Source: Ginglymostoma cirratum
Taxonomy: Eukaryota
Assembly (NCBI GenBank): GCA_024137785.1
Contig: JAHRHZ010000139.1
Location: 38,719,447-38,783,446 of the forward strand
DNA: 64,000 bases
Direction: 5' to 3'
The notes under the pieces were generated by a model. The model was given only the letters and a program-made list of their open reading frames with translations, had not been told where the DNA came from and did not search any database. Position 1 is the stretch's first letter. Every line of letters begins with the position of its first letter. Positions 4,001 through 23,486 of the stretch are shown here, piece by piece. A program made the translations under genes and the position numbers.

Positions 4001-4446
4001 ATCTTCCTGGTCGAGCAGCAGCTCCACAAAGGAATTTACATGATATTTTATATCAGAAGGAAGTATCCCAACATTGTGTTGGATTTATGCTATTTTTACT
4101 CCCTCATTTGCATACATTAATCAGTCAGTGAAGCTTTGCATATTACAAGTCATTCTAATGTTAAGTGTGAAAATGGAAGTTAATGTGCCCCAATCTCACT
4201 GTAAGATGATCAAAAATGTAAATGTCTTATCTGCATTTAGAATGACTGAAATTAAATTAAATGCTGATTTCCAGCTAAACAGTACATTGACTTTAAAATG
4301 ATATTTGAAACATGTTTGTGGTATAATCTGAAGCCACTTAATTGTAACAGAGATAAAAGGTACTGCAGATGCTGGAGAATCCGAGATAACAAGGTGTGGG
4401 GCTGGATGAACACAGCAGGCCAAGCAGCATCATAGGAGCAGGAAAG

Positions 4447-4480
4447 CTTGACGTTTCGGGCCTAGACCCTTCATCAGAAA
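4447..4480 (-). ncRNA. Minimal type I hammerhead ribozyme motif (copy 1 of the tandem pair)
   Basis: Minus strand UUU-CUGAUGA-A-GGGU(CUAG)GCCC-GAAA-C-GUC-AAG; intact core, stem II, palindromic ACGU in place of stem III. Confidence 0.75.
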
Positions 4481-4792
4481 TGGGGGAGGGGAAGAGGGTT
4501 CTGAAATAAATAGGGAGAGAGGGGGAGGCGGATAGAAGATAGATAGAGGAGAGGAAAGGTGGAGAGGAGGCAGACAAGTATGAGAGAGTTGCAGTGGGAC
4601 AGAGATTCCCTGAGGTTTGTCTGGAGGGAGGAGGGTAACTTCTTCAGGGTAGGCATCCTTAGAAGAGGCTTCGCACAGCGGTTAAAATTGTATCAGAGAT
4701 AAAAGGTACTGCAGATGCTGGAGAATCCGAGATAACAAGGTGTGGGGCTGGATGAACACAGCAGGCCAAGCAGCATCATAGGAGCAGGAAAG

Positions 4793-4826
4793 CTTGACGT
4801 TTCGGGCCTAGACCCTTCATCAGAAA
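4793..4826 (-). ncRNA. Minimal type I hammerhead ribozyme motif (copy 2 of the tandem pair)
   Basis: Identical to 4447-4480. Confidence 0.75.
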
Positions 4827-5429
4827 TGGGGGAGGGGAAGAGGGTTCTGAAATAAATAGGGAGAGAGGGGGAGGCGGATAGAAGATGGATAGAGGAGAGG
4901 ATAGGTGGAGAGGAGGCAGACAAGTCAAAGAGGCGGGGATGGAGCCAGTAAAGGTGAGTGTAGGTGGGGGGGTAGGGAGGAGATAGGTCAGTCCAGGGAG
5001 GATGGACAGGTCAAGGGGGTGGGATGAGGTTAGTAGATAGTCCAGCATTTCTCTTGCAAATGAATAGGACTAACCACTACTGAGGCAGGTTGTTCAATTT
5101 GGGACATTTGTTAACACAGCATAATAACCCCATTTAAAAGACCCCCATCACACCCAATGTTAACTCTTGGGAAGTGAGTGTACAGCACAAAGTTGGGTTT
5201 TCCAGGAGCAGAATATAGATGGCCAGATGAACTGGTTTTAAGATCTTGTTCTCTGGGACATTGTCACGGTTGTTTTAGAAGCTTTCATGCCCTTTAGCCA
5301 TCATCCCTCATTCTCCCACCCACTGGCTCTTCTATGCCCTCCATAAACCTTCCAAGTCAACTCATGTTCTCCCCCATGCCACCTCATACCCCCACACGCT
5401 AACTCTACAGCCTCTCATAAGGCAAGGCT

Positions 5430-7872: not shown

Positions 7873-8003
7873 TTTCTGATGAAGGGTTTAGGCCCGAAAC
7901 GTCAAGTTTTCCTGCTCCTATGATGCTGCTTGACCTGCTGTGTTCATCCAGCCCCATGCTTGTTATCTCGGATTCTCCAGCATCTGCAGTACCTTTTATC
8001 TCT
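7873..8003 (+). mobile_element. Solo Penelope-like tail (family A) starting at an intact hammerhead core (7873-7906)
   Basis: tttCTGATGAagggtttaggcccGAAAcGTCaag... near-identical to the reverse complement of 4350-4480. Confidence 0.85.
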
Positions 8004-9246: not shown

Positions 9247-9440
9247 TAAAAGCAGAGATTGTTGGGAAAACTCAGCAGCTCTGGCAGCATTTGTGGAGAC
9301 AGAACAGAGCTAACCTTTCAGGCCAGCGACCCTTCTTTATGGACCCGAAATGTTAACTGATTTCTCTCTACAGATGCTGCTAGACCTGCTGAGTTCTCCC
9401 AGCAATTTCTGTTTCTGATTTTCCAGCATCCGCAGTTGTT
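9247..9440. mobile_element. Head-to-head fusion of two Penelope-like tails (long inverted repeat)
   Basis: Left arm gggaaaactcagcagctctggcagcatttgtggag is the reverse complement of right arm ctctacagatgctgctagacctgctgagttctccc; junction lies inside hammerhead remnants (~9337). Confidence 0.75.
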
Positions 9441-10290
9441 TGTGATTTTTTGTTTGGTTTAGAGGTTTGTTTGCAGACTCAAAACACTCTGAGACAAGTT
9501 TGCACTGCAGCACCGTGCCTAAAGTGAATATTTCAAATCAGCTCTCAAGTTTTTTGTTCATTTTTGAATGTTTTCAGTGGAGTGTAAACGTGACCATCAG
9601 TACAATGGCTCCCATTGTATTTACTGCTTATAAAATTACACACGGCCTACAGCGATGAAAGGTGTTAGAAAGATGACAACATGGTAACTTTCCAGGAGAC
9701 AAAATGCTTTCCACAGACTCCGGGAAGGACCACCCCAACGTGCACTTGAAAAGACGGAGGGGGCACATTTCAGAAGAGAAGCGATCACGTTCCTTTGGAG
9801 ACCCCTCCAGAACTTGTAGTTAATCTGTGCCATAAATTCGTGTTAGGGTGTGGGTTAGTGCGTCTTTTATTGCGGGCAGATATACGGGACAGGAGTGGCA
9901 CCCCAGGATTTACATTCCGCAAATTAACACCAGTTAATGGGGACTTGGCTCTTTTATACAGAAAATTTTCTCAGGCACCAGTCTTTGCGCCATTATGCGT
10001 CAGGCCACATAAAGATTGATAGGCCGGGTTAATCTGATGAATGGGACCTTATCATGACTATCAGGGTGTTCCATTATGGGGAGGGTTTAAAGTGCATTTT
10101 ACAACAGATTGTCAACAAACTATTACTGAACTTGACACACTGTACCAGTGCTCGAGGTTTCGAAGACAAACGGAGAGACTTTGTTCTGTAAATGAAATAA
10201 TAAATAAGCTCTTGATGTTCTGAAATTTAGCTAGTCCCCGATTTACATTCTGCTGGGATGCTTTCAAAGCGCTGACAAATACAACACTTA

Positions 10291-10493
10291 GGGTCTAGTC
10301 CCCAAACGTCAGCTTTCCTGCTCCTCTGATGCTGCTTGGCCTGCTGTGTTCATCCAGCTCTACACCTTGTTATCCTAGATTCTCCAGCATCTGCAGTTCC
10401 TACTATCTCTGAAACAACATTTAGAGTTGCTTTGGAGTAAACCAGTAATTCTGCACTAACATAGATAATAGGAACTGCCGATGCTGGAGCATC
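10291..10493 (+). mobile_element. Penelope-like tail (family A) plus a short inverted copy of its end
   Basis: 10291-10412 matches the family A tail (GAAA mutated to CAAA); 10463-10493 agataataggaactgccgatgctggagcatc is the reverse complement of ~10378-10410. Confidence 0.8.
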
Positions 10494-11333: not shown

Positions 11334-11460
11334 ACTACCAGCTCTGAAGAAGGATCTCTGGACTCGAAACGTTAACTCTGCTTTCTGTCTCTCACTCTCT
11401 CTTTGCAGAGATGCGGCAGGTTTGCTGAATTTCTCCAGCTATTTCTTGGTTTCTGTTTTG
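11334..11460 (+). mobile_element. Penelope-like tail with hammerhead core (11340-11377) in the FGFBP3 5' intron
   Basis: agctCTGAAGAaggatctctggactcGAAAcGTTaactctg followed by the tail shared with 9338-9440. Confidence 0.75.
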
Positions 11461-11686
11461 TCGTCCCACTTTCTCATTCGCCTCCCAGACAGTAAATCAT
11501 TCCTTTTCCAAATAATTCCCAACTCGATTTGGAGACAGATTAGATGGAGCTGGACTGGAACTGAATTAAGTTAGGCTGAATGAAATGTGCATTAGATTAA
11601 CGATTCAATCTTTATATTTCAGGTTGAAGTCGCGATTTTGGCTTTTTGAGGGGAAACGTGAAATTCGTGTTGAGGGGGCTGAGGAG

Positions 11687-12397
11687 ATGAGGTGCTTTTG
11701 GGAACTCACTTGGTTTCTCTTGGTGTTGTACCTCATCTGCTTTCCCGGGGAAGGGGCGAAAGGCGGAGATGGGAACGAACAAGCCAGCCGTCCCAGGAGG
11801 AAGGGGAAAGGAAAATTGTTGCCGAACAAAGGAGTTCTGACCACCAGGGAGGGCCATGAGTGTTCCTGGGAGGTGCAGGGGCAGGAAGAGTCCACCCTCC
11901 AGCTGAGCTGCACGTACCAAGGCAACAGTTACTGGTGTCAGTACAGCGGCACGCCACACAGCTGCCTCGCCTACAACAGCAGGGCGGCCCAGTACTGGAA
12001 ACAGGTCCTCAGTAAAGTCAAGAGGAAAAGACACGCCTGTCAGGGAGATGCCACCTTAAAGGCGAGGGTCTGCAAGCAGGGGCCGGCAGAATCTCAGCTA
12101 AAACTGACGGGCAAGAGCCCCGAGCCGGGCAGGAGAAAGGACAAGGTTCATTTCAGAGGGACTGGGCGCCTGAAGGAGCCGAGTGCAGAGTTGGAGCAGG
12201 CTGAGCCCACTCAGAAAGCCCAGAAAAAGACCAGCAACAAATCCAAAGCGTCGGATTCTGTCAGGGGCGACGAGCCGAGCTCACTGAGTGAGATGAATGA
12301 TGACCATCCCGATTTGCAAGGAGACCTCTCTCAGGTTTACTGCGCTCAGAAATGGCATTCCCTCTGCTCCTTCTTCGTCGGACTGTGGAATGGCTAG
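11687..12397 (+). CDS. FGFBP3: Fibroblast growth factor-binding protein 3 (236 aa, single coding exon)
   Basis: Signal peptide MRCFWELTWFLLVLYLICFPGEGA; FGFBP motifs ECSW, LSC, YWCQYSGTPHSC, YWKQ, HACQG, RVCKQGPAESQL, and C-terminal YCAQKWHSLCSFFV (8 mature Cys); acceptor tttatatttcag at 11622 excludes the ORF-track ATG at 11585; convergent with TNKS2 as in human, which supports paralog 3. Confidence 0.92.
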   Translation: MRCFWELTWFLLVLYLICFPGEGAKGGDGNEQASRPRRKGKGKLLPNKGVLTTREGHECSWEVQGQEESTLQLSCTYQGNSYWCQYSGTPHSCLAYNSRAAQYWKQVLSKVKRKRHACQGDATLKARVCKQGPAESQLKLTGKSPEPGRRKDKVHFRGTGRLKEPSAELEQAEPTQKAQKKTSNKSKASDSVRGDEPSSLSEMNDDHPDLQGDLSQVYCAQKWHSLCSFFVGLWNG

Positions 12398-22500: not shown

Positions 22501-23486
22501 TACCCCTTCAAAAAGGTAGTGGAACTAATCAAATTGCTTTAATTTGTGAAGTTTACTGAGTTGTTATCTTGAGTTGTGCCCTGGAATTGTACATTAGAAA
22601 TGCAACAACAGTATAATTGTGAATAACATCTTTCATGATGTTACCATTTACATTTTAAATCCCTGGAAAATATTTTTTCAAAGAAACCTACATCTATGTC
22701 ATGACCTTGGTCACAATTTGGAAGACATATCTGAAGTTGCTCTTTGTAACACCCTTGGTTCTTCAGTTTTAACCTCTCTTTATGTCAATTATTCCTGCTC
22801 TTCATTTGCCTTAATACATATTGAGGTTCCTTCTGATCCCAGTGACTATTCACAGACTATATTAAGATTGCTTTCTCTTCCTAATTCAGCAATGGGGCAG
22901 TACTGGAAGCATTTCCTTGTACAAGAATCTACATTCAACTATGACTAGCAGGGTTGAATGTCCAGTTAAAAATGAAGAAGTGCCATTAATATTGTACATT
23001 TCATAACCTCAGGACATCCCCATGTAATTTAAAGCCAACAACAACATAACAAAGATTGTAATGGGGAAACGTGATGTGGTACAATGAGATTCAGGTGATC
23101 AAGATGATATTGTAACTGATCACATGACTGACATCAATAAGGGAGAAGACACCTTTCTAGCATGAGTATGTGAAGACAGAGTTCTTAGACACTAGACTAG
23201 AGAGCAATATTTGAGAACTTTGAATGTACAAATGTAAGCAAAAGATCGAATATGGCACAGATGTAAATAAACAAGTGTTGTAGTACACAAGGAGTTGAAA
23301 AGTCTCACTTTGTGATGAGAAGCAAGCAGCCTCAGGGACAGTCTGTGGGCAGACAGGCACAACTAAAAGAGATTGTCCAGACCAGTACCTCAATGAGCAA
23401 GTGGCAGTACTGGCACAAGACAAATCATATGGCACAAGACTCCCAAAAACAGCAGTTAAATACATAAGGAGACTGTCTATTTTAGG

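Follow-up and report, generated by a model that had tools for sequence, protein, structure and literature searches.

The sequence between positions 4340 and 5040 of the window (the whole 64,000-nt stretch of Ginglymostoma cirratum DNA analysed here) is probably a short, non-coding, partial-tandem insertion of a Penelope-like element (PLE), whose end-repeat hammerheads were doubled by a jump of the reverse transcriptase (RT) and which belongs to a lineage of two loci. The parent is a PLE, the anatomy of the insertion is [q3-463][q118-350], and insertions built in this way, with breakpoints that vary, are common in the genome. The coordinate q counts along the minus strand; in the upstream copy it equals 5043 minus the window position, and in the downstream copy the offset is 346. 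In our best reading, the locus has the shape of a retrozyme but is a by-product whose lineage is tiny at most, and not an amplified 346-nt family. Its parts are:

4580..5040, minus strand: upstream (pre-junction) PLE copy, q3-463, holding the 3' element/pLTR, then hammerhead 1, the tail and the start of the ORF; 96% to the long copy L165
4926..5040, minus strand: pLTR upstream sequence outside the 346-nt unit, 115 nt, collinear with the EN-to-pLTR region of L047, L054 and L165
4825..4830, minus strand: family-wide 5'-end hotspot q213-218, a putative transcription start, with 63/511 piece starts
4793..4826, minus strand: hammerhead 1, of minimal type I form; its core is 4823-4796 and the cut is predicted at 4796/4795
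4693..4730, minus strand: PLE tail between the 3'-end hotspots q313 and q350; second copy at 4347-4384
4580..4656, minus strand: first 26 codons of the PLE ORF, continued in L047 and L165
4579..4580, minus strand: jump-back junction, q463/464 to q118, with 1-nt microhomology
4340..4579, minus strand: downstream (post-junction) pLTR copy, q118 to q349/357, with the 3' end of the insertion
4447..4480, minus strand: hammerhead 2, of minimal type I form; its core is 4477-4450 and the cut is predicted at 4450/4449
4450..4795, minus strand: hypothetical 346-nt cut-to-cut monomer, fold z 0.59 linear and -0.01 circular

The block at 4348-4579 recurs at 4694-4925 with a period of 346 and two mismatches in 232 bp (4541 and 4556), as direct comparison of both copies confirmed for the repeat given in the preliminary description. 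When the repeat is extended to 4340, identity is 237/240; the third mismatch (4347) lies at the usual 3' end of the family, and the insertion boundary may be there. The two mismatches, from which a young age had been claimed, are a poor clock, because one of them, perhaps both, is also present at another locus. On the minus strand, both copies read UUU-CUGAUGA-A-GGGU CUAG GCCC-GAAA-CGUC/AAG; the identical cores, the stem III made of the palindrome ACGU and the stem I of 3 bp (two A-U and one G-U) all agree with what had been described. The predicted ribozymes would cut after C4796 and C4450, 346 nt apart. A scan of the window with Rfam gave no match at the gathering score, and the 346-bp repeat is absent from the TRF output. 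The spacer measures 106 bp (4580-4685), or 114 when counted to 4693, and its ATG at 4656 opens 26 residues, MPTLKKLPSSLQTNLRESLSHCNSLI, which longer copies continue into the PLE ORF, so that the earlier suggestion of a parent ORF start was right. The upstream copy extends to 5040, 115 nt past the repeated unit. No target-site duplication was found, the longest word common to the flanks being 6 nt and lying away from the ends. The locus is thus non-coding, with two consecutive intact type I hammerhead cores 346 nt apart, and amounts to 1.7 units.

The proposed Penelope origin was borne out by longer copies in which RT and GIY-YIG sequences are continuous with that of the locus. In L047, the end of an endonuclease (EN) is followed by the locus pLTR and then by the same peptide running into an ORF that contains DKG and RT motifs, while the linker before the endonuclease is of the form CX4CX2C (CNRTKCYTC). 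An 821-residue natural frame matches RVT_1 (E=5e-8), the locus pLTR following it at 95% identity; the GIY-YIG match, in another copy, is weak (E=4e-4, below the Pfam curated cutoff). Together with this ORF continuity, the family has a pLTR with a tail and a minimal hammerhead within the pLTR, and its two 3'-end peaks, 37 nt apart, correspond to a tail of 30-40 bp. Judged by its sequence, the parent is an EN+ PLE, and it is probably of the Neptune type, an assignment made by the linker motif alone; a CX2-5CxxC linker between RT and EN is a Neptune criterion in the excerpted text of PMC8557442. All 150 RT matches scored are close copies, nearly all of them 92-95% identical. Word counts over the 4.36-Gb genome gave at least 55,652 exact 28-nt hammerhead cores, 1,541 ORF-start anchors (421 + 1,120) and 372 occurrences of a word 26 nt further into the ORF; therefore, most copies are pLTR stubs.

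Junctions at which the sequence leaves the ORF start and returns into the pLTR were surveyed in 98 of the first 100 loci listed for one ORF-start anchor and the first 30 listed for the other (112 loci after duplicate removal, with L050 and L130 removed as duplicates). The form [y..e][x..t], with the exit (e) in the ORF start and the return (x) in the pLTR, was found in 88/112 loci; L047, which runs into the ORF without a junction, was left out, and its inclusion would make the tally 88/113. Exits run from about q456 to q680 and returns from q-116 to q260, with return hotspots at q100, q117/118 (11/88) and q213-217. The 3' ends (t) of junction loci fall at q305-322 in 45/84 and at q343-362 in 31/84, together 76/84. 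Double-hammerhead tandems, with units of 247-571 nt, were present in 21/112 loci, and both cores were intact in nine. The loci are first-listed rows and not random draws, and the genome-wide estimates of about 1,000 jump-back junctions, about 340 double-hammerhead tandems and about 150 of these with both cores intact are rough lower bounds. In 50 insertion-free junctions, microhomology averaged 1.44 versus 0.80 in shuffled pairs, with 0/5000 as high.

Several other sources of the junctions were rejected. A fixed RNA 3' end at q463 was initially suggested by a sample skewed toward early exits; exits in fact run from about q456 to beyond q600. Splicing does not account for exit and return points that vary and lack GT/AG, nor does insertion into an older copy at q118, since none of the junction loci has an upstream piece that ends at q117. 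Fossil 5' ends at the ribozyme cut site were rejected likewise, with 11/511 piece starts at q247-250, where the cut is predicted, versus the 63/511 at q213-218; a single junction of 88 returns at the predicted cut site, q248, and the excess of starts at q248 is mild by eye among the 100 of 3,961 candidates listed. The 5'-end hotspot has an Inr-like CCATTTC, with a TATA-like TATTTAT at 4859-4853. An extra G before starts at q210-216, as a cap signature, was not significant (12/32 vs 29/124, p=0.12).

In the mechanism we favour, the PLE protein would bind an RNA spanning the pLTR and the ORF start and nick AT-rich DNA. The cDNA would begin inside the RNA at either q313 or q350, two sites that lie 37 nt from each other, stop at a 5' hotspot (q118), pair over a short microhomology with the RNA end near q463 and continue copying, carrying the hammerheads along uncut. 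The junction would have been made once and then recopied from junction-bearing RNA, either a linear read-through or a circle, giving a sibling trimer on C20. Because 5' ends lie before the ribozyme and few are at the cut, the templates were seemingly mostly uncut; in excerpts describing the Anolis Poseidon element in vitro, the hammerhead is likewise dispensable for insertion and uncut RNA serves as template (PMC11167929).

The preliminary description proposed a shark retrozyme-like family with a 346-nt unit, and regarded a junction unique in the genome as evidence to the contrary. The junction is not unique to the locus: a genome search with the exact 27-mer gave 13 matches at 12 loci (control 0). 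A segmental duplication of these 12 loci was rejected, their flanks being unrelated (L005 and L006 are a segmental duplication pair). The PLE origin and the dimer-type hammerheads of that proposal also stood, and one of the 12 loci is a likely sibling. A distinct 346-nt family was not supported, given the many breakpoints in the 88 junction loci, a count at hotspot level, two haplotypes and 115 nt outside the unit. Returns at q117/118 occur in 4/20 loci exiting at q463/464 and in 5/51 exiting elsewhere (Fisher p=0.26), and independent hotspots would yield 421 x 20/83 x 5/51, or about 10 matches, versus the 13 seen. At least two subfamily haplotypes are represented among the 12 loci, and with the hotspot-level count this indicates that most of the 12 junctions arose independently. 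The locus also holds q3-117, which is absent from a 346-nt circle, and so does not simply reproduce such a circle. No amplified family or array of its own was found among the 12 loci, which include one sibling and a trimer as the longest array.

The one likely true sibling, judged by shared alleles, is this trimer at 56.90 Mb of C20 (L013/L198), in which the junction is present twice. It shares 443G, 421A and 141T with the locus, from which it differs at 14 positions in 544 nt, and the flanks are unrelated. The 443G word has 14 exact matches in the genome, and the junction accompanies 2/14, the locus and the C20 trimer only; the 141T word has 52, and one of the 30 examined has the junction. 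The shared junction with rare flanking alleles therefore makes it very likely that the junction was copied at least once. In C20, 141T and 156T are split, each unit having one of the two; as 156T recurs elsewhere (4/144), the split may be due to homoplasy or to a third source locus.

Whether such copying went through a circle bears on an alternative that we consider unlikely, though it is the strongest of the rivals, namely a small-scale retrozyme cycle in which tandems cut in cis give circles around which the PLE RT rolls, the C20 trimer coming from a 346-nt circle of the locus or of a relative. The trimer, with its two junctions and a start exactly within the 346-nt unit, fits this, both cores are intact at the locus, and a circular intermediate was proposed earlier for PLEs (PMC4209133). 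A circle from the locus predicts 141T and 156T together in both C20 units, however, and not one in each, and the same junctions otherwise occur on different haplotypes. Among loci with several junctions, 15/18 show a single junction more than once, either serially or on each of the inverted arms, and three have mixed junctions (L056, in two places, L080, mis-parsed, and L128, ambiguous, are excluded from the count). Such repetition favours the cycle, but is predicted both by a circular template and by repeat jumps between the ends of a linear RNA. In the return class q209-222, the upstream copy also begins there in 10/14, as a linear RNA end would give, and extra bases are present at the junction in 11/14. 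For returns below q205, the upstream copy passes the return point in 0/71, and copies reaching it usually cross the same junction, which we count toward a circular template. The locus is atypical in this respect, and the favoured explanation of an RT jump must therefore assume a second template or a switch. Fold models also weigh against the cycle: the 346-nt monomer has 42% of its bases paired and does not exceed shuffles in stability, so that by this comparison it is not a stable, highly self-paired molecule, and free folds are predicted to pair CUGAUG with CGUCA, burying the core, or to pair the stem II palindromes of the two copies. The local hammerhead fold has -9.3 kcal/mol, and the constrained double-hammerhead fold lies 36 kcal/mol above the free ensemble, a figure of little weight given that it lacks an active-ribozyme control and leaves tertiary contacts out of account. 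The models, uncalibrated, thus disfavour an active dimer. Minimal hammerhead variants of this type are said to cleave as dimers, reportedly a result of Lunse et al. in 2017. Dimers of minimal hammerheads cleaved weakly in PMC4209133, and in the excerpted Xenopus data 1/9 dimers cleaved and 8/9 did not at all (bioRxiv 10.64898/2026.07.22.740005). In one unstranded polyA RNA run (about 24% read), 28,711 reads fell on the repeat, 89% of them running into other sequence; the locus flanks had no reads, and neither starts nor ends were listed as piling up, in a library type that cannot show circles. In run X22, 11 reads aligned, and X1 and X17 are contigs whose type is uncertain.

A more general version, that PLEs continually spawn short circular templates of pLTR and ORF start and that the locus and the C20 trimer are a retrozyme at birth, appears about as doubtful to us. 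Quite improbable is an event at the DNA level, in which slippage or unequal crossover duplicated a single PLE copy locally and gene conversion accounts for the likeness to C20. The copies do differ at just 2/232 sites, and satellite-type pLTR expansion is proposed in part of bioRxiv 10.64898/2026.07.22.740005; against it, exits cluster just inside the ORF, 3' ends fall at two fixed sites, flanks are unrelated, the same junction is present at 11 other loci, and tandem slippage would not be expected to give inverted arms that share a junction but end differently. An assembly artefact is scarcely credible. Repeats of this PLE type are described as hard to assemble in the excerpted PMC8557442 and no contig compared spans the locus, but the copies differ at two sites, the non-random junction is shared by 11 other loci and the ends are typical of the family. 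Between these accounts, insertion of a partial tandem formed by an RT jump remains the reading we prefer.

It is normal for PLEs to have partial tandems, tails and inverted copies, according to excerpts of PMC8557442, PMC3846280 and PMC2377424. The locus and its relatives share with EN+ PLEs of the Neptune type, as the same excerpts present them, 5'-truncated partial tandems, the pLTR, the 30-40-bp tail, inverted 5' copies (in the relatives), RT followed by GIY-YIG, DKG and a CX4CX2C linker before EN. In contrast to those elements, the ORF of the locus is cut to 26 codons by the jump back into the pLTR, and so the tandem is non-coding. The hammerheads resemble the minimal ones of PLEs in having an extra base between A9 and 10.1, a G10.1-C11.1 pair, a palindromic 15.2-16.2, no loop 3 and a short stem I; stem I has 3 bp and stem II 4 bp, versus 4-5 and 7-8 bp in Schistosoma, and the count of cores given above greatly exceeds the figures of about 4,000 in coelacanth and about 9,000 in Xenopus (PMC4209133). 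In Anolis carolinensis Poseidon in vitro, as far as the excerpts of PMC11167929 go, two internal RT starts likewise bound the tail, both target strands are extended and ORF-start RNA is needed; jumps from the 5' to the 3' RNA end, which we infer from genomic copies, are not in the excerpted Poseidon description.

Vertebrate non-LTR retrozymes are described in parts of bioRxiv 10.64898/2026.07.22.740005 as pLTR derivatives, one of them chondrichthyan with a mean unit of 363 bp. Two consecutive complete hammerheads, homology to the pLTR and a unit near 363 bp are common to these and the locus, which differs in having 1.7 units that TRF does not call and in a unit length that varies among loci. 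Coral and axolotl non-LTR retrozymes, in the excerpted PMC7229834, are similar in their 170-400-nt unit with a type I hammerhead and, for axolotl, in the requirement for a dimer; unlike the locus, they have canonical hammerheads, arrays of up to 62-mers and abundant, highly self-paired circles. The single locus is of minor importance, as a by-product of a known retroelement, and the wider junction population matters more. PLE tandem formation and the origin of retrozymes from PLEs are treated as open questions in portions of PMC2377424 and bioRxiv 10.64898/2026.07.22.740005. In the literature searched, which is incomplete in coverage, none of the papers listed deals specifically with the statistics of PLE jump-back junctions. 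The roughly 1,000 junctions, the few hundred double-hammerhead tandems, the repetition within multi-junction loci and the sibling pair make the choice between a circle and a linear jump directly testable; if the circular-template reading were true, the junction loci would be a fossil record of the origin of retrozymes from PLEs.

Some further features of the junctions were observed. The return hotspots at window positions 4925 and 4988 (q118 and q55) both sit at G|AC, q100 being a third; a nuclease site, a pause or a minor start are candidate causes. In RNA run X21, the joint 4942 to 4580 is another jump-back junction (38 reads with 23 starts), with 27 extra ORF bases and a return at q101. Micro-tandems of 31, 24 and 35 nt within PLE insertions (L021, L066 and L235) suggest RT stuttering. 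In L112 and L158, a composite junction with a short deep-ORF piece (about q1203-1229) is crossed by each of the two inverted arms, and this junction was therefore likely in the template. An inverted copy pair at G000:C3:7936132-7936191 is centred exactly on the stem III ACGT palindrome.

The window contains further copies of the same PLE family at 7873-8003, 10290-10417, 1866-1954 and 23484-25271, the last of which combines inverted arms with the endonuclease end in a complex, as well as older related pLTR/hammerhead remnants at 11346 and 9356-9436. The stem II variants GGGUC/GACCC and GAGUC/GACUC in related loci represent a compensatory change. A 275-residue frame at 11570-12397 on the plus strand matches FGF-BP1 (PF06473, E=1e-55), and the PLE insertion lies about 6.5 kb upstream of it on the opposite strand.
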